From Dictyostelium discoideum (lineage: Eukaryota): DNA of 64,000 bases. The DNA is taken from assembly GCA_000004695.1 (NCBI GenBank), contig CM000152.2, positions 5,600,001 to 5,664,000 of the forward strand, read 5' to 3'. The notes below the pieces were generated by a model. It did not search any database. It was not told the DNA's origin and saw nothing but the letters and a program-made list of their open reading frames with translations. Position numbers and translations under genes: made by a program. This document shows, in pieces, positions 2,309 to 54,661 of the stretch. Each line of letters begins with the position of its first letter. Position 1 is the stretch's first letter.

Positions 2309-3090
2309 TCATTGGATTATTAAAATCATTNNNNNNNNNNNNNNNNNNNNNNNNNNNNNNNNNNNNNNNNNNNNNNNNNNNNNNNNNNNNNNNNNNNNNN
2401 NNNNNNNNNNNNNNNNNNNNNNNNNNNNNNTATTCATACTATTATTATTCATATTATTATTCATATTATTATTATTATTATTCATATTATTCATATTCAT
2501 ATTATTATTATTATTCATATTATTATTCATACTATTATTATTATTATTCATATTATTATTATTCATACTATTATTATTATTATTCATACTATTATTATTA
2601 TTATTCATGTTATTATTCATACTATTATTACTGTTATTATTATTATTATAATTTAAAGGTGAAGAATTTAAAGAAGAAGGTGAAGACTGATTAGTTTTAT
2701 TAATATTAGTACCAGAATTTACGGAAGAGACAAATTTAAAAATATCTTGAAGGGAAGAAGACTTTTCTAGAGAGAACAAGTTGTAGATCTTGTTAAAGCT
2801 ATAAAAATAATGTGTATGCTTAAGTGTTTGCATCAAGGAGGCCATATTGGGATCACCAATAGTAAAAAACAAACGCTCCATTGAATCTAATAATCTATTT
2901 GCGTCATCGATTGAAAATGGACGTTGATGAGCCCAGGAATTTCTAAAATTATATATTTCATGTAAAAGATTTCTCAATTGAATAAAATCATCTGAAAAGA
3001 AAGAATTCAACATATATTTGTGGAAAAATTGAATAATACAAGATAAATCCCAACTTTCAAAATTTAAAATATTATTACTGTTATTGTTAC

Positions 3091-3181
<91 letters not shown>

Positions 3182-3475
3182 GTTATTATTATTATTGCCA
3201 TTTGATTTTGTCCTATTCTGTATTATAGTTTGTTGATTTATAATTTGTTTTTTTAAATCTTTTATCATATCACTGGTTATTGAAAAATCTTCTTTCGAAG
3301 AGGAAACGAAACCCATATCTAGGTCATTTTCATTTATAACAAATTTAGAATCTGAGCCGATACAATCTGATAGTTTAGAAATTAAAAAATCTCTACATAA
3401 ACTTAAAGATTTGCCTACAATAAGTTGGTTTGAACCAATTCCAAACTCGTCTAAATTATTTAATGTCAACTCCAT
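2309..3475 (-). CDS. HEPN-motif protein. N-terminal domain, poly-Asn linker, then a helical domain carrying an R-x4-H motif (FRNSWAHQRP). The 3' part is interrupted by a 100-N assembly gap.
   Basis: 388-aa ORF starting MELTLNNLDEFGIG. It contains LRNLLHEIYNFRNSWAHQRPFSIDDANRLLDSMERLF, which fits the HEPN Rx4-6H signature with a polar residue after R and surrounding helices. The ORF runs into the N-run at 2331..2430, so the true C-terminus is unresolved. Confidence 0.55.
2331..2430. other. Assembly gap (100 N)
   Basis: Literal run of n. It lies inside an (ATT/AAT)n coding repeat on the minus-strand gene, so the gap length is probably a placeholder. Confidence 0.95.
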
Positions 3476-6768: not shown

Positions 6769-7243
6769 ACTAATTCGTGAAAATACCACACAATAGTTTT
6801 TTTTTTTTTAACAAAAAAACGAATTTATTTCCTTTTTTGAAATTTCTTTTACCCCCAAAAAAATAAAAAAATAAAATAAAATAAAATAAAATAAAATAAA
6901 ATAAAATCCCCCAATGATATAATTGATTTTCGCAATTCAAGTTTACGCATATGTGGGAATTCAAATTTTGAAATTAGTCAAAAAAAAAAAAAAAAAAAAC
7001 TAACTTTGTAAAAGATGGTCATGATGGTATATAAAAAAAAATAAAAAAAAAAAAAAAAAAAAAAATTAATAATTAATAATTAAAATTTGACACTTAAATA
7101 TACATAAAATGATTTTGAGTTCTCTATTTTATTTACTAAATTCATATTAAAAAAAAATAAAATTAAATGATTATTAAAAAAAAATAAAAAAAAATATTAT
7201 TTTTTTTTTTTTTTGTTTTATTTATTTTTTTTTGGTGGGGAAT

Positions 7244-9652
7244 TTAATGTTTAATATCAAGTTCATTTTCACTTTTTATTTGTATACCCAATTCATTTGC
7301 TTTATTTAATTTTGCAATTGCAGGTTTTTCACCAATTAATAGAATTTGAGTAAAAGAATTTATTGATGATTGAACTTTTGCATTAAATTTTCTTTGAATA
7401 AAATCTTTTACAAAATCTCTATCACCCAATTTAAATTTACCAGTAATTACAATATATTTATTTGATAAAAAACTATTATTATTTTCATTATTATTATTAT
7501 TATTATTATTACCAATTTCTTCATTATTATCATTATTGTTATTATGAGTTAATTTTAAATTATTTGATTTAAATTTAAAAATTAAATAATCTAAATATTG
7601 TTTTTCAAATTGATCTAATGGGTTAAAGAAATTAAAGATTGATTCAGAAGTTTGTCTACCAAGACCAGATTGTAATTCAATTGATTCGATTGATGGTGAA
7701 TTAATTAGATTATCCAGAGATTGAAATTTCTCAGAGAGGATCTTTGAATTTGAGCTTCCAATACCAGGTATACCTATAGCACAGAGTAGTGAAGCTAAAC
7801 CACGTGATTTACTATCCTCAATTGATTCTAATAAATTATTAACTTTTGTATGACTAAAACCTTTCAATGATAATAGTTTTTCCTTAAATTGATAAAGTTC
7901 ATACAAGTCACCGAAATCTTCAATTAATTGATTCTCTAATAATACTTGAATTTGACTTTTACCAACACCTTGAATATTCATTGCTTTCTTATCAACAAAC
8001 CATGAAATTTGTTGAACTAATTGATTTGGACAATTTTCAGCAACACAAAAATAATCAACATATCCAACTCTATTAACTAATTCACTTTTTAAATTACATG
8101 GACATAATATATTACCATTTTCATTACATTTAAATAATGATTCAATATTATTGGTATTATTGGTATTGGTATTGGTATTGGTATTATTGATATTATCATC
8201 AAGGTTAGTAATTATTTTTGGAATTACATCACCAGCACGTTCAATTAAAACTTTTGAACCAATTTTAATATTTAATTTATTGATGTATGAGAGATTATTT
8301 AAAGTTGCACGAGAAATGGTAACACCATGAACTTGAATTGGTTCAACCAATGCAACTGGTGTAATTCTACCACTTTTACCAACTTGTAAAACTATATCTT
8401 TTATTGTTGAAATTTCACTCTTTGCTCCAAATTTATATGCAAAAGCCCATCTTGGTGATCTATTAATGTCTCCTAATATTCTTTGAATATTTATATCATT
8501 CACTTTTATAACTATACCATCAATATCCCAATTATGATTCTCTCTTTTTTTAAGTTCCCATTCTTTTATAAATTCTTCAATATTTTTTATATCATTATTA
8601 TTACCACCACCACCAGTAGATAAAGTTACAACTGTATTTGAACCATTATCAATTTGAAATCCCATTTTTTCAAAAAGTTTTAAATTCTTTGATTGTGTAT
8701 TACAACGTTCATCATCAATTATCATTTCATTGTCATTTTCCTTTTCATTATCATTTTCATTTTCATTTTCACCATTATTAATATTATTATTGTTATTATT
8801 AGTTGGTATAAAAAAGTATGGAAAGAAATCAAATTTCATTTGTTCATTTAATAATAATATTGGTTCAATATTTAATGAATCATTAGCATCTTCTTCAATT
8901 GATTTCCTTAGAATACCAGATACAATATTTCTTGTATTTTTATATTGATGTTGATCATTATTATCAAGTTTTAATTTATTTATAATTTTTAAATATGATT
9001 TATTTAAAACAACCTCACCTCTAATTTCAAAATCTTTATATTTCTAATTAAAAAAAAAAAAAGGAATTAATATTAAATAATAATAATAATAATAATTACT
9101 AATATTAGAAATAAAATAAATACGGTTAAATTTGAAGGTAAAGTTAATAAATTTTTAAGTGATGGAATAAATTGTAATGCATTTGTTGTGATATCTTCAC
9201 CAATTTCACCATTACCTCTTGTTAAAACTCTTTTTAATTTATTATTTTCATAAACTAAACTTATACCAATACCATCATATTTCAATTCTAAAGAGTATTC
9301 AATTTGTTGTTGTGGTTGTTGTTGTTGTGATGTTTGTTTTTTTAATAGAAATTTCTCAATTTTATTTTTGAATGCAATTATATCATCTTTTGAATAAGTA
9401 TTTTGTAATGATAACATTCTTGATTTATGTCTGAATTTTAATCCTCTATTATTACTATAATCACTAATTGGTGCTCCAACTTGATTAGTAATAGTTTGTT
9501 GATTAAATTTCTTTTCTAAAATTTCTAATCTTTTAAATAATTTATCATATTCGAAATCTGATATTTCACTTTTAGATTTATTATAATATAAATCATTATA
9601 TCTATTAATTTTATTTCTTAATTCTTCAATTTCAATTATTTCATTATTATTA

Positions 9653-9690
<38 letters not shown>

Positions 9691-9734
9691 GTTTATAGTT
9701 GATGTAGTAGTAGTAAATTTACTACTTTTTAATA

Positions 9735-9771
<37 letters not shown>

Positions 9772-9831
9772 ATTACTATTTTTAAAATTTAAAAATAAAG
9801 TCTTTAAATATTTTGATTGTTGCCTAAACAT
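7244..9831 (-). CDS. ligA: Bacterial-type NAD+-dependent DNA ligase (LigA family), two exons
   Basis: Exon 1 is 9831..9124 and exon 2 is 9043..7244. The 80-nt AT-rich intron (9123..9044) is GT..AG on the minus strand, phase 0, and frame-consistent with both track ORFs. Exon 1 carries the Ia/adenylation domain: ISDFEYDKLFKRL, RMLSLQNTY, the KxDG motif LELKYDGIGISL and TRGNGEIGEDIT. Exon 2 carries DFEIRGEVV, NTRNIVSGILR, the OB fold RSPRWAFAYKF...ERAGDVIPKI, the Cys4 zinc finger CPCNLKS...CVAENCPNQL, the HhH LGIPGIGSSNSKIL and a C-terminal BRCT (KYIVITGKFKLGDRDFVKDFIQ...GEKPAIAKLNKANELGIQI). The N-terminus (MFRQQSKYLKTLFLNFKNS) is basic and hydroxyl-rich. Confidence 0.85.
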
Positions 9832-9951
9832 GATGAAACAACTTTTTTATTTTTTTATTTTTTTTTATTTTTTTTATTTTTTGGAAATAAACGAACTTTG
9901 GTTATTTTCCAATCTTATTCAATTTTTTTTTTTTTTTTGAAATTTTGATTT

Positions 9952-10011
<60 letters not shown>

Positions 10012-10070: not shown

Positions 10071-10232
10071 ATGACAAGTATGTTTTTAAAAAAATTTATT
10101 AGTATTCAATAAAAAGAAAATGATGATTAAATAAAATAAAATAAAACAAAATAAAATAAAACAAAATAAAATAAAATATAAATTTAAAAAAAAAAAATCA
10201 TTTTGTGAAAATAATAAAATATTAAATTAAAT

Positions 10233-32423: not shown

Positions 32424-32497
32424 TTATTGAGAGTTTGCTTTTTTACAAGGTCTTGAATCAGTGAGTAATAGACTGTCATCATCATTACCATTATTGA

Positions 32498-32555
<58 letters not shown>

Positions 32556-33719
32556 GTTGTTGTTCTGTTCTTGTTCCTTTATTAAATCAATATTAACAGT
32601 TGTATTATATTTTTCGATTAAAGTTAAAATTGAATTTGAAAGTTCTAAAAAGTTTACAGGTTTTGAACAATGTAAATCGAAACCACTTTTTAAAACCTTT
32701 TCTTTATCAGATGAGGAAACGGAAGCAGTTAAAGCAATGATTGGAGTTTTTTTATTTTGAGTGTTAATCTTTTCTCTATCTCTTAATTTTCTAACCATTG
32801 AATAACCATCTTCAAATGGCATGGTAAGATCGGAAAGGATAATATCTGGTTGAGGTTTACTTGAATCACAGAGAAAAGCATAAGCATCAGAGACGCGTTG
32901 AAAAGTATCAATTCTTTTTGCACCCAATTTATAAAGCATCGACGAGAATAGATGTGTTGTCTCCTCTAAATCATCTACTAGCATTATTTGAATTCCACCT
33001 AATAAATTCTTATTACTATTTGCTTTTGGTGATCTCAAATTAGGACTCATACTATTATTATTATTATTATTACTATTATTATTATTATTATTATTGTTGT
33101 TTGACGATGATTTTAATTCAGATAAAGGAGATGAGAATGGTGATAAAGTTGGTAAAATAAATGATGGTGATGGCGATGGTAATGGTAATGAATTAATCAT
33201 GTTAATTGCTGAACTTGGAGGTGTTGGTATTGTAGTATTATTACTGTTATCATCGTTGTTACTATTATTAATGTTATTATTTATTGCATTTGTAATAATA
33301 GTTTTTAAAAGAGAGTTATTATTATTATTGTTGTTATTATTATTATTTATAACCAAAGATAATTTTGGATTTAAATTTGTTGATGGGATTTGTGATATTT
33401 CTAAATTAATTTTTTTGATATCACCAATGTTATTATTGTTATTATTACTATTATTATTATTATTGATTGGATTCAATGCTGGTGAAGGTATCAAATTTGA
33501 AGAGTTCACTAAAAAGTTTTCAGAAATTGATGAGGTTGGAGGTGGTGGTGGTGTTCTTAATCTTAAATCTACATTATTATTCTCATTATTGTTTATTTCT
33601 TCTCTTTGTCTTTTACCTAATTTTTCATTATTATTTGAATTATTATTATTATTATTATTATGATGATAATTATTATTATTATTATTATGATTATTATTAA
33701 TTAAATTATTAATATTTAA

Positions 33720-33805
<86 letters not shown>

Positions 33806-33845
33806 TATTATTATTATTACTATTATTATTATTATAATTATTATA

Positions 33846-33935
<90 letters not shown>

Positions 33936-36900
33936 ATAATTTGTTGGTTGACTAAAGAAAGGTTTTTTAATTAAAGGTGGTGAAGATGAACAAGATAATT
34001 GATTTGAAGGAGAAGAATTTGAAGAGGAAGAACCTTTAATGATAGGTAATACGACAGTGAATTGTGAACCTTTATTTTCACCTTCACTATTTGCATAGAC
34101 GGCACCTTTATGAAGGTGAATAATATTTTGAGTGATTGAAAGACCAATACCCAAACCACCATAGGATCTAGTTGAACTACAATCAGCTTGTTTAAAACGA
34201 TCGAAAACACTTGGAAGGAACTGTTTTGGTATGCCTTTACCATTGTCAGTGATAGTGAAAAGGATCCAACGATCACCATGACGATTGATTGTGTTAAACA
34301 TTGGATTGGAACAAAAACCCAATACTTCACGTGAAGGTATTTGATTTACAACCTTTAGATTTAAATGGATTCTACCTTTTTCTTTAGTGAATTTAATAGA
34401 GTTTGAAAGTAGATTCCAAATGACTTGTTGCAATCTTGCTTTATCACCAACGATGTTACGTAGAATTGAGGATTCTTCTTCACCTTCACCTTGAATATTG
34501 GAATGGACAGAGATCTTTTTAGATTGAGCTGTAACGAGTATTGAGGAGATTGCATTCTCAATTAAAATTGGTAAATCAACATCACCTAAAATTAAACTAA
34601 ACTTATCACCAATAATTAATGACATATCCAAAAGATCATTGATAAGTTGATTTTGAGAGCTTGCACAACGTTCAATAGTTTCTAAACCAGTTCTAACTGT
34701 TGAATCATCACCTGAAATTGAACCACTGCCACCACCACTACTACCACCACTATCAATATCATATAACAATAATTGACACCAACCTAAAATTCCATTTAAT
34801 GGAGTACGAAGTTCATGAGATAAATTCATAAAGAATTCATCTTTTGATTTATTTGTATTATTTAGTAGATTTCTTTCTTTTTCCAATTCACCAACCAAAG
34901 TTTGTAAATCTCTTTTCTTATTTGTTAATTGATTAATTAATTCTTGAAGATCTGTATTTGCAGAACTTAATTCTTCTTGTAGGAATTGTTTTGCTTTTTT
35001 CATAGTCATTAAATTAACTACACGTGCCACCAATTCTTCAGAGGAGAATGGTTTATTGACATAATCAGAGACACCATTTTGTAATAGTTTAATTCTTAAA
35101 TTTTCATCAGCTTTTGCAGTTAATAAAAGTATAGGAATATTATCAAATTGTTCATCGGATCTTAATTGTTCAACCATTTCATCACCACTCATACGTGGCA
35201 TCATACAATCGGTTACAATGAGATCGGGTGTTATTGCTCTTGTCTTTTCAATGCCCTCAACACCATCGAATGCTGTGACCACGAAATAATATTTACTTAA
35301 TAACTCTGCAATGAATCTATTCATCTCTGGATTATCTTCAACCACTAAAACTATTGGTTTATTATGTATATTTTCTTGTGATTGATAAAATTGTTTCTCT
35401 GTTAATTCCTCAACAGCTTGTTGAGCAATTGCATGAACTCCCATTATACTACCCATATTATCTTTTAATGCATTTGAAGCAATATCTGAAGATGTATTTG
35501 TTTTTTTTAAAATATTAAAATTTAAACCATCCTCATCATCGTCGTCGTCGTCGTCGTCATTATCGTCGTCGTTTATTTTATATTTATTATCGATATTATT
35601 TAAAATTAATTTTGGTTGTTGTAAATTTTGTTGTTGTTGTTGTTGTTGTTGTTGTTCTTGTTGTTGTTGTTGATATAATTGTTGTTGAATTTCAGAAATA
35701 TTTTGATCGGATATAGTTTTTTTATAAAGATGCTCATCCATATTTGGAGTGAGTGGTAGTCTGAGGGTGAATTGAGCACCACCAGTTGAAATGTTATGAA
35801 TGGTGACAGTGCCACCATGTAAAGTTACAAACTCCTTTACAATTGAAAGACCTAAACCAGTGCCACCATGCTTTCTAGTTGAAGAACCATCCACTTGTCT
35901 AAACCTTTCAAAGATGATCTCGTGTAAATTATCTGGTATACCAGGACCAGTATCAGACACCACGATTTGAAAGCCAGGTTTATTTGGTGACAAATCAAAT
36001 TTCTCTAAAATACACTTTACTGCACCACCTGATGGTGTGAATTTAAATGCATTGGAAATCAAATTTGTTATAACTCTTTGCATTTTATCTGCATCAATTG
36101 CTGCCATCATTGGTTCAGATGGTGTAATGATTGAGAAATCCAATGATTTCTCTCTTGCTAAAATCTCAAAACAACTTGCAATCAAATGAACGGTTTGACC
36201 TAAATTAACCATACTATAATTTAAATTCATTTTACCTGCTTCCAATCTACTTATATCTAATAAATTATTTACAATCTTTAATAATCCTCTTGCATTTCTT
36301 GCAACAATCTCTAAATCTTTTCTAACATTTATATCTACATTTTCATCTTTTAATAATTTATCTGTTGGTCCAACAATTAATGCTAATGGTGTTCTTAATT
36401 CATGTGAAACATTTGCACTAAAAAAAAAAAAAAAATTAGGTTATTATTATTTTTTTTTTTTTTTTTTTATTTTTTTATTTTTAAAAAATTACTTACAAAA
36501 ATTGAGTTTTTAATTCATCCAATTCTTTAATTTTTTCATATAAACTTCTTAATTCATTATTTTTTCTTTCGATTTCTAATTCACCTAATCTTTTTTCAGT
36601 GATATTTCTACCCTCGGGTAAGATGAGTGATACCTCACCTTTATCGTTAAATAATGGCATCAATGAGAAATCAATTGTAATCTTTTCGGTACCAGCTGAT
36701 TTACCAAAGATTTCAGTTTCATAACGTATAAATTCACCTTTTGATGCTTTATGAACTGCCTCTCTAACATTATCTATATTCTCTTGTGATGTTGCCCACC
36801 ATCTACAATCCCAAAATGGTATACCTTGAATACTTGAACGTATCATACCACCACCTTGTAATGCTGGTTCATTTACATCTAATAAATTACCATTAACATC

Positions 36901-39989: not shown

Positions 39990-41144
<1,155 letters not shown>

Positions 41145-52626: not shown

Positions 52627-52918
52627 GTAGTTGGTGTTATATCAGTATGGTATGAAGTGTTCCGGGATGTTTATGGTCATGAGTTTCGAGTTCCAGTTGT
52701 GGCTGAATTTTTCGAGTCTTCTTTTTATTGATGCGGTCCGATTGATTGATTCTTGGTTATCAGTGCATCTTAGTTCTTGACGTAATTGCCTTTCTACTAT
52801 CTTTCTTGTTCTATCCCATTCGGCATCTCTCGCTTTTTTGATTTTATGAATTATTTGGTTCTCTGTTATTTTATGGAAGTATCGAAAATAGTTATTCAAA
52901 ATAAATTTTCATAAAAAT

Positions 52919-52991
52919 GCCCGGCTAGCTCAGTCGGTAGAGCGCCAGACTCTTAATCTGGTGGTCGGGGGTTCGAGCCCCCCGTTGGGCG
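52919..52991 (+). tRNA. tRNA-Lys (anticodon CTT)
   Basis: 73-nt cloverleaf GCCCGGCTAGCTCAGTCGGTAGAGCGCCAGACTCTTAATCTGGTGGTCGGGGGTTCGAGCCCCCCGTTGGGCG. It has A and B boxes, anticodon loop CUCUUAA and the same acceptor stem as metazoan tRNA-Lys(CUU). It is followed by T-rich Pol III terminator AATTTTTTATTTT. Confidence 0.9.
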
Positions 52992-53080
52992 AATTTTTTA
53001 TTTTAAAATTTAATAGTACACTGGTTCAATTCTTAACTTGGTCCCACCAATGGTTTAAGAGGATTGTGTAATTATTTACC

Positions 53081-54002: not shown

Positions 54003-54075
54003 TCACCCATTGTGGGTCTCGATCCCACGACCTGCAGCTTAGAAGGCTGCCGCAATTCCAACTTTGCTAAACGGG
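54003..54075 (-). tRNA. tRNA-Arg (anticodon TCT), probable
   Basis: The reverse complement gives GCCCGTTTAGCAAAGTTGGAATTGCGGCAGCCTTCTAAGCTGCAGGTCGTGGGATCGAGACCCACAATGGGTG. It has D-arm, anticodon stem GCAGC/GCTGC with loop CUUCUAA, T-arm GTGGG-ATCGAGA-CCCAC and a 7-bp acceptor with two G-U pairs. A poly-T follows within 10 nt. It is head-to-head with tRNA-Lys about 1 kb away. Confidence 0.6.
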
Positions 54076-54661
54076 CTTTGTTGAATTTAAAAAAAATTAT
54101 AGCCAAAATCGGCATTAATTTTAAAGTTTGTACCTTGTTTTATTTCTGATGAAAAACATCGGGTATTGTTATTATTTAAATATTTTGTAATTTTCAGCCT
54201 CTATACCATTATTATTTTAATTTTTTTTTTTTTTTTTTTTTTTTTTTGAATTTAATATTTTAAATTTAATAATAATATTTTTTATTATTGTTGAAAAATA
54301 TATGTGGTCAATATTTCAAATAAATATAATAATTTACAATAGATTTATTTAGATATATAATGTAAATTAATAAATGGTTATTAATATTATTATAATTATT
54401 TTTTTTAAATTTTTTTAAATTCTACACAACCTAATATTTAAACCTAATATTTTTTTTTTTCATTTTATTATTGCTTTTTCACACCCAATATTTAAACCAC
54501 AAAGATATCAAAAAAATATCTTAGGAATAAAAAAAAAAAAAAATTTAAAAAATTTTTTTCATTGATTTTTATTTTAGTTTTTTTTTTTTATTTTTTTTAT
54601 TTTTTATAATTATAAAAACACAACAATTTAAAAAAAAAAAATATTTTTTTATCTCTTAAAA

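Follow-up and report, generated by a model that had tools for sequence, protein, structure and literature searches.

We identified a spliced two-exon gene for a NAD+-dependent DNA ligase (LigA) of 835 amino acids (aa) on the minus strand, at 9831..7244, of a stretch of the Dictyostelium discoideum genome (assembly GCA_000004695.1, contig CM000152.2, positions 5,600,001 to 5,664,000), whose full 64,000 nucleotides we refer to as the window. Read without splicing, the frame reaches a stop codon 16 codons into the intron. The spliced product is letter-for-letter identical to NCBI KAM9950550.1, a D. discoideum protein encoded on a 6.43-Mb contig, which shares a 90% cluster with the entry of the reference strain AX4 (XP_001134548.1 / UniProt Q1ZXG5, "DNA ligase (NAD(+))"). 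The gene, its predicted domains and its inserts are given below in window coordinates; pLDDT is the predicted local distance difference test score of an AlphaFold2 (AF2) model, and NTase stands for nucleotidyltransferase.

7244..9831, minus strand: whole ligA gene; start codon 9831..9829, stop codon 7246..7244; 835 aa; exact match to KAM9950550.1; TIGR00575, 506 bits
9831..9124, minus strand: exon 1, 236 codons
9123..9044, minus strand: spliceosomal intron, 80 nt, GTATTT...TTAG (GT..AG), phase 0, 7.5% GC
9043..7244, minus strand: exon 2, 599 codons plus stop
9643..9831, minus strand: N-terminal extension, aa 1-63, putative mitochondrial presequence; MFRQQSKYLKTLFLNFKNS, then two poly-N tracts around SKFTTTT
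9439..9642, minus strand: domain Ia (NMN/NAD+-binding module; NMN, nicotinamide mononucleotide), aa 64-131; aligns to Thermus filiformis LigA from its residue 9
9124..9438, minus strand: NTase (adenylation) domain, exon-1 part, aa 132-236; motif I LELKYDG, K184 codon at 9282..9280
8417..9043, minus strand: NTase domain, exon-2 part, aa 237-445; motifs III (E246), IV (D411, K416) and V (K440)
8726..8803, minus strand: insert TNNNNNNINNGENENENDNEKENDNE, aa 317-342, in an NTase surface loop; not in bacteria or Tieghemostelium lacteum; pLDDT <50 at aa 320-347
8177..8416, minus strand: OB-fold domain, aa 446-525; PF03120
8147..8188, minus strand: TNTN insert NNTNTNTNTNNTNN, aa 522-535, before the Zn finger
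8012..8116, minus strand: variant tetracysteine Zn-finger region, aa 546-580; C550, C552, C569, C574 (CxC...Cx4C)
7547..7996, minus strand: HhH domain, aa 586-735; HHH_2 and HHH_5; pLDDT ~90-96
7475..7546, minus strand: poly-Asn linker HNNNNDNNEEIGNNNNNNNNENNN, aa 736-759, between HhH and BRCT; pLDDT <50 at aa 746-759
7247..7477, minus strand: BRCT domain, aa 759-835; PF00533; aligns to the T. filiformis BRCT

Profile searches place the product in the LigA family, with scores above cutoff for both the NCBIfam LigA equivalog TIGR00575 (506.1 bits versus 444.45, E 1.4e-151) and NF005932 (495 bits versus 369). We also obtained Pfam matches to DNA_ligase_aden (PF01653, 9.5e-52), the OB-fold family PF03120 (2.9e-26; 91.6 bits, cutoff 32.9), HHH_2 (7.4e-9; 36.1 bits, cutoff 27), HHH_5 (2.8e-5) and BRCT (PF00533, 6e-6; 26.8 bits, cutoff 21.3), while Nlig-Ia scores 21.5 bits, under its cutoff of 27, though the NMN-contact residues align. 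Thus, of the four Pfam families that a first-pass annotation of this DNA had proposed to search, PF01653, PF03120 and PF00533 are matched and PF03119 is silent. Significant sequence matches in the PDB are all bacterial LigAs (e.g. 1v9p, 1.8e-76). The AF2 model, built from a 46-sequence alignment, has a mean pLDDT of 79, and the top 38 PDB matches returned for it by Foldseek are NAD+-dependent ligases or their derivatives (bacterial LigA, a LigA-based sensor and the PR1 phage ligase). The top matches, to bacterial LigA, have E-values of 1e-58 to 1e-40 and, for the adenylation domain, template modelling (TM) scores of 0.81-0.85 with a root-mean-square deviation (rmsd) of ~3.5 A. The first-pass annotation had allowed for best matches to ATP-dependent ligases; these reach just ~1e-7.

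The predicted domains follow the order Ia, NTase, OB, Zn finger, HhH and BRCT, which is the complete LigA series. In an alignment with the Escherichia coli enzyme, the equivalents of Y22, D32, Y35, D36, E113, K115, D117 and G118, as well as those of R136, E173, R200, R208, R277, D285, K290 and K314, are all conserved; these are residues known as essential from the mutational literature on that enzyme. In D. discoideum numbering, the domain Ia equivalents of Y22/D32/Y35/D36 are Y82/D92/Y95/D96, and the conserved NTase residues are K184 (the nucleophile), R205, E246, R274, R282, R403, D411, K416 and K440. The position of E. coli H23 is occupied by Tyr, as it is in T. filiformis LigA and three aligned bacterial matches. 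The reading of the locus as a complete bacterial-type LigA with intact catalytic motifs is therefore borne out. The proposed Cys4 Zn finger appears in variant form: C550/C552/C569/C574 correspond in the alignment to E. coli C408/C411/C426/C432, with a first pair spaced CxC instead of CxxC, presumably the reason for the silence of PF03119. This CPC spacing is common to the amoebozoan orthologues described below and is also seen in one bacterial group. Judged from sequence and predicted fold, the atypical finger spacing is the sole departure among the LigA-defining features that we checked, and the locus appears to be a chromosomal gene of D. discoideum encoding a LigA that is full-length, catalytically competent and apparently active.

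Host-style inserts had also been described, and they are present and Asn-rich, but the TNTN insert, earlier placed ahead of the BRCT domain, precedes the Zn finger, and solely the poly-N stretch at aa 736-759 precedes the BRCT. Low-confidence segments of the AF2 model (1-6, 8-10, 15-54, 125-128, 320-347 and 746-759) correspond, except for the short 125-128, to the N-terminal extension and the Asn-rich inserts, so that the inserts decorate loops and linkers and not domain cores. The Asn/Thr/Glu-rich tracts may represent lineage-specific expansions of disordered loops and linkers with no catalytic role.

The AX4 reference protein is 843 aa long, and its sole difference from the 835-aa product is an extra octapeptide, VFILFLIL, which comes from intron sequence through use of a donor 24 nt downstream (at 9099/9100). 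In Dictyostelium firmibasis, a 69-nt intron lies exactly at the upstream-donor position in the same phase, and an in-frame stop three codons into it makes the downstream donor unusable in that species. Moreover, intron 3 of the variosean Planoprotostelium fungivorum is identical in alignment column and phase to the intron of the two Dictyostelium species, and no homologue in the alignment carries a VFILFLIL-like insertion at this site. These three observations favour the upstream donor, and with it the 80-nt, phase-0, AT-rich GT..AG intron at 9044..9123 that had been proposed from the letters alone and that yields the exact KAM9950550.1 product. The 843-aa splice model is less likely, and the AX4 reference model probably uses the wrong donor. 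An older model, UPI00004E4D17, is 852 aa long and differs at the C-terminus too.

The ligase gene resembles its surroundings. GC content is ~20% across the window, GC at third codon positions (GC3) is 8% in ligA, and its relative synonymous codon usage (RSCU) correlates with that of the neighbouring genes at r = 0.98. Genes elsewhere in the window are ordinary eukaryotic ones, encoding an RRM protein, an ankyrin/RabGAP-TBC protein, leishmanolysin, an MFS transporter, a hybrid histidine kinase, polyubiquitin, a formin, a phosphatidylserine (PS) decarboxylase and a BK-type channel. The ratio of nonsynonymous to synonymous substitution rates (dN/dS) relative to D. firmibasis is 0.205 for the whole gene and 0.12-0.15 within Ia, NTase and HhH, from which it follows that the gene is maintained by selection. 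D. discoideum ligA is under purifying selection and is a fully host-adapted nuclear gene.

We searched for orthologues among 5.8 billion clustered proteins and 1.84 billion representatives and found them in seven further named species, as well as in three environmental or Sequence Read Archive (SRA) proteins (P0220, P0221 and P0376). Five of the species are dictyostelids, namely D. firmibasis (81% identity), T. lacteum, Acytostelium subglobosum, Heterostelium album and Synstelium polycarpum, and the others are P. fungivorum and the discosean Balamuthia mandrillaris, a human-pathogenic amoeba. In neighbour-joining (NJ) trees of ~200 sequences and ~650 columns, calculated with a Poisson-type correction and again after Dayhoff-6 recoding, the amoebozoan sequences together with P0220 and P0221 form one clade, with bootstrap values of 93 and 92 in two trees and of 57 and 53 after recoding; Dictyostelia alone receive 98-100. 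The amoebozoan sequences have in common a clade-specific insertion of ~15 aa after GILRK. Two intron positions are shared across lineages: that of the Dictyostelium intron and Planoprotostelium intron 3, and a second, at ...Q|VGRTG in phase 0, in Planoprotostelium and Balamuthia. The GILRK insertion, the CPC finger and the two shared introns agree with the tree on a single amoebozoan origin. Together, the shared introns and the single clade place a spliced nuclear gene before the split of Dictyostelia, Variosea and probably Discosea. As read from these sequences, the acquisition is older than amoebozoan diversification, probably including Discosea, and is not a Dictyostelium-specific transfer.

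Several of the orthologous gene models require comment. The 1100-aa T. lacteum protein DLAC_00157, in which an upstream reading frame with a match to Uma2 (PF05685) is joined to LigA across a 215-nt "intron", was judged an annotation fusion; translation from an in-frame ATG within this "intron" would yield a separate LigA that has its own presequence and begins MIHIKNIHYVIYNRLTSSITTFGGSNKRYFSSTTAS. Both the Heterostelium model (1835 aa) and the Synstelium model (2793 aa) extend into downstream genes and were likewise judged to be fusions. In Planoprotostelium, the model contains 12 introns and is missing the first two Zn-finger cysteines; an intron lies exactly at the missing cysteines (after aa 470), and a small exon may have been overlooked. 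B. mandrillaris carries allelic or duplicated LigA copies (P0258 / P0366) on two contigs; each also has an annotated "variant 2" of 675 aa, probably an artefact of annotation, whose start falls within the NTase domain so that Ia is missing.

A common feature of the amoebozoan enzymes is an N-terminal extension. Bacterial LigA begins 5-15 residues ahead of the first Ia helix and has no such extension, whereas all amoebozoan sequences that are complete at the 5' end carry an extra 35-130 N-terminal residues. These extensions are basic, with 0-6 Asp or Glu residues and none in D. discoideum, T. lacteum and Acytostelium. In D. discoideum, aa 1-63 contain eight Lys or Arg and no acidic residue, in line with the basic, acid-free N-terminus described in the first-pass annotation, and the AF2 model shows a helix at aa 7-20 and disorder in the remainder of the extension, with low pLDDT throughout. 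A motif of the form [RK]-x-[FYW]-[STA]-[STA] with Arg occurs in five of nine extensions (Tieghemostelium RYFSS, Synstelium RAWSS, Planoprotostelium RRFSS, P0220 RSFAS and Balamuthia RGYTA), against a chance expectation per instance of 0.03-0.12 in composition-matched shuffles. Motifs of this R-x-aromatic-S/T type resemble the R-3 cleavage motif of the mitochondrial processing peptidase (MPP). Furthermore, the first Met after M1 is M139, so that no isoform lacking the extension could keep domain Ia.

A mitochondrial presequence, as suggested in the first-pass annotation, is plausible and gains weight from these orthologues. Conserved basic extensions, MPP-like motifs and the absence of an alternative Met lead us to favour import into mitochondria, where the enzyme would seal nicks in mitochondrial DNA (mtDNA) by the standard three-step LigA chemistry, at a probability of roughly 0.6. 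We hypothesize that, after synthesis in the cytosol, an N-terminal presequence directs the protein to the mitochondrial matrix. There, domain Ia would position the NMN moiety of NAD+ for attack by K184, forming ligase-AMP with release of NMN; the AMP would then pass to the 5'-phosphate at the nick, with the OB, Zn and HhH domains closed around the DNA as a clamp, and attack by the 3'-OH would complete the seal. Matrix NAD+ would in this way be spent on sealing nicks in mtDNA replication and repair. The wider proposal, that Amoebozoa (Dictyostelia, Variosea and at least Balamuthia) kept an ancient, nucleus-encoded and intron-bearing LigA as their mtDNA ligase, is put forward tentatively, at a little under even odds. 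No functional or localisation studies of amoebozoan LigA were found in the literature searched.

A number of observations weigh against one or another part of this picture of an ancient, active and mitochondrial LigA. Within the enzyme, the Zn-finger spacing is non-canonical and PF03119 gives no match to the 835-aa protein, and the Asp of the E. coli TRGDG motif (D138) is replaced in D. discoideum by N207 (codon at window 9211-9213, in both assemblies), a substitution confined to this species, since D. firmibasis and every other aligned sequence keep Asp. Within the extension, the motif of D. discoideum and D. firmibasis is SKF|TT, with K in place of R, and the D. discoideum extension is mostly poly-Asn. 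Support for placing Balamuthia is weaker in the recoded tree, where the clade receives 57 with it and 89 without it. Protein searches returned no match for Acanthamoeba, which has mtDNA, or for D. purpureum and Cavenderia, although any of the three may have unannotated genes; given this patchy distribution, LigA cannot be the universal amoebozoan mtDNA ligase. In addition, PMC2806865 reports a ligase III orthologue in D. discoideum. The apparent lack of the gene in Acanthamoeba and the presence of ligase III help to hold our estimate at about 0.6.

The same ligase III orthologue could serve the mitochondria, and the Acanthamoeba result and the missing Arg can likewise be read in favour of our main rival explanation, namely an active LigA that is nuclear or dual-targeted, serving in accessory repair ligation or acting on the extrachromosomal palindrome of ribosomal DNA (rDNA), with an extension that is not a presequence. 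The retained BRCT domain fits such a role, and N-terminal poly-Asn is frequent among Dictyostelium proteins whatever their compartment. Conversely, presequence-like extensions with R-x-aromatic-S/T motifs are conserved in kind across ~9 divergent orthologues, no nuclear localisation signal is obvious by eye, and there is no downstream Met from which an isoform without the extension could start. We regard a nuclear or dual role as possible but unlikely, at something like one chance in four, and retain the mitochondrial assignment as the preferred one.

Where the gene came from is a separate matter, and its donor cannot be named from the sequences compared. No bacterial or viral sequence closer than ~40% identity was found in the two large protein sets, GTDB genomes or IMG/VR. 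The best relatives, ~30-40% identical, are scattered over Bacteroidota, Acidobacteriota, Bacillota, Fusobacteriota and metagenome-assembled genomes (MAGs), and the sister group varies among bootstrap replicates (one bacterium in <=47%, long-branch viral sequences in <=28%). The bacterial group with a CxC finger (P0008/P0009/P0010) was considered as a relative and rejected, as it joins the amoebae in 0/100 NJ bootstraps; its first finger pair is CSC, PF03119 does not match it either, and its contig is truly bacterial (ftsY, queA, a sigma-70 gene, rpsR and rpmE). The phylogeny recovers one amoebozoan clade with no supported bacterial or viral sister. The earlier proposal of horizontal acquisition and subsequent intron gain is broadly right, with the amendments that the event is ancient and clade-wide and that no donor can be attached to it. 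The 2009 ligase study of Yutin & Koonin (PMC2806865) describes NAD ligases as sporadic in eukaryotes and includes in its tree the Dictyostelium sequence as a eukaryotic representative.

Endosymbiotic transfer from the alphaproteobacterial ancestor of mitochondria, with retention just in Amoebozoa and a few other eukaryotes, would suit a very old acquisition (shared introns), a probably mitochondrial protein and a divergence from all sampled bacteria (<= ~40% identity) deep enough for great age. Even so, six alphaproteobacterial LigAs group with the clade in 0/100 NJ bootstraps (a sample that has no Rickettsiales and may be affected by composition bias), their mean identity to the clade is 31-37% compared with 34-40% for other bacteria, and the gene is absent from most eukaryotes, which leaves this origin improbable. 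Slightly less probable still is capture from a giant virus or large phage that infected an ancestral amoeba. Amoebae do host nucleocytoplasmic large DNA viruses (NCLDVs) that encode NAD+ ligases (PMC2806865), and long-branch IMG/VR sequences are sometimes sister to the clade, but this grouping, found in <=28% of NJ bootstraps and for long branches only, has the low support typical of long-branch attraction, and viral sequences are no more similar to the clade than bacterial ones (<=33-40% identity). Moreover, the maximum-likelihood (ML) tree of PMC2806865 has an NCLDV clade, described as unequivocally supported, near gammaproteobacteria and phages, and the legend order lists the Dictyostelium sequence among bacterial taxa, suggesting a position outside that clade. 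Bacterial contamination, very recent transfer or a decaying pseudogene, for which nothing speaks beyond the bacterial-type domain architecture, is refuted. Two independent assemblies place the gene on a 6.4-Mb D. discoideum chromosome among eukaryotic neighbours, and it has a spliceosomal intron, host codon usage (GC3 8%, RSCU r = 0.98), a dN/dS of 0.2 and intact catalytic residues; the first-pass annotation had already thought contamination unlikely.

In addition to ligA, the window contains less closely related features. Directly upstream of the ligA start is a poly(T) run of ~85 nt (window 9925-10010), and (AAAAT)n-type AT microsatellites lie on both sides of the gene (6860-6907 and 10120-10178); all are typical of Dictyostelium intergenic DNA. 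An open reading frame (ORF) at 2309-3475 (minus strand) encodes a Swt1-like HEPN domain (PF18731, 2.6e-11) and also has sub-threshold similarity to a tape-measure family of contractile injection systems. The hybrid histidine kinase is encoded by a large ORF at 32424-36245 (minus strand) with HATPase_c, HisKA and response-regulator receiver domains, and is among the prokaryote-like two-component proteins common in Dictyostelium. The polyubiquitin gene, with five repeats, is at 39999-41144 (plus strand), and two tRNA genes, for tRNA-Lys(CTT) and tRNA-Arg(TCT), are at 52918-52992 (plus strand) and 54004-54076 (minus strand), respectively.

NAD+-dependent ligases are usually described as bacterial, with some viral and archaeal members, and they are pursued as antibiotic targets because they are regarded as bacterial. 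A conserved, selected and probably organelle-targeted LigA family in Amoebozoa would clearly depart from the rule that cellular DNA ligases of eukaryotes use ATP only, and would bring a bacterial-type component into amoebozoan mtDNA maintenance; if the mitochondrial role holds, nick sealing in mtDNA would run on NAD+ instead of ATP. Pathogenic amoebae, Balamuthia among them, might also be susceptible to LigA inhibitors. The gene is not new: it is annotated in databases (Q1ZXG5) and appears in one published tree (PMC2806865). The amoebozoan clade, shared introns, presequence-like extensions and corrected splice site appear to be unreported in the literature searched. The value of the present analysis therefore lies in the comparative picture of an ancient clade with shared introns and a conserved presequence-like extension, and in the corrected gene model, and not in gene discovery.

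In domain order, catalytic residues and predicted fold, the Dictyostelium enzyme is like bacterial LigA (E. coli, 2owo/5tt5; T. filiformis, 1v9p/1dgs), from which it differs in being encoded by a eukaryotic nuclear gene with an intron, in its 63-aa N-terminal extension, four low-complexity inserts, ~15-aa GILRK insertion and CxC first finger pair, and in an identity of only 30-40% to any bacterial sequence. The proposed job, sealing nicks in mtDNA after presequence-directed import, is that of the opisthokont mitochondrial ligases (vertebrate LIG3 and the yeast Cdc9/Lig1 isoforms), for which the first-pass annotation saw it as a possible replacement. The opisthokont ligases use ATP, fall in the archaeo-eukaryotic lineage and exist as isoforms of nuclear enzymes, whereas the amoebal enzyme is of a predicted NAD+-dependent type and bacterial lineage, has a single start codon, and has a mitochondrial role that is proposed. 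The role of LIG3 in mitochondrial DNA ligation is stated in a review (PMC7470946).

Other outliers to the bacterial rule are the NAD+ ligases of giant viruses and entomopoxviruses (mimivirus R303, AmEPV and iridoviruses), which likewise act in a eukaryotic cell but form their own clade near gammaproteobacteria and phages (PMC2806865), and are not host nuclear genes. Haloferax volcanii LigN is a LigA-type enzyme that occurs outside Bacteria after apparent lateral transfer (PMC1684257); its host is archaeal, and introns and organelle targeting are absent. The ligase of the bdelloid rotifer Adineta vaga (PMC10665377) is a precedent for a horizontally gained, non-standard DNA ligase at work in a eukaryote, though its type and lineage are different and the role reported for it is in DNA damage tolerance.

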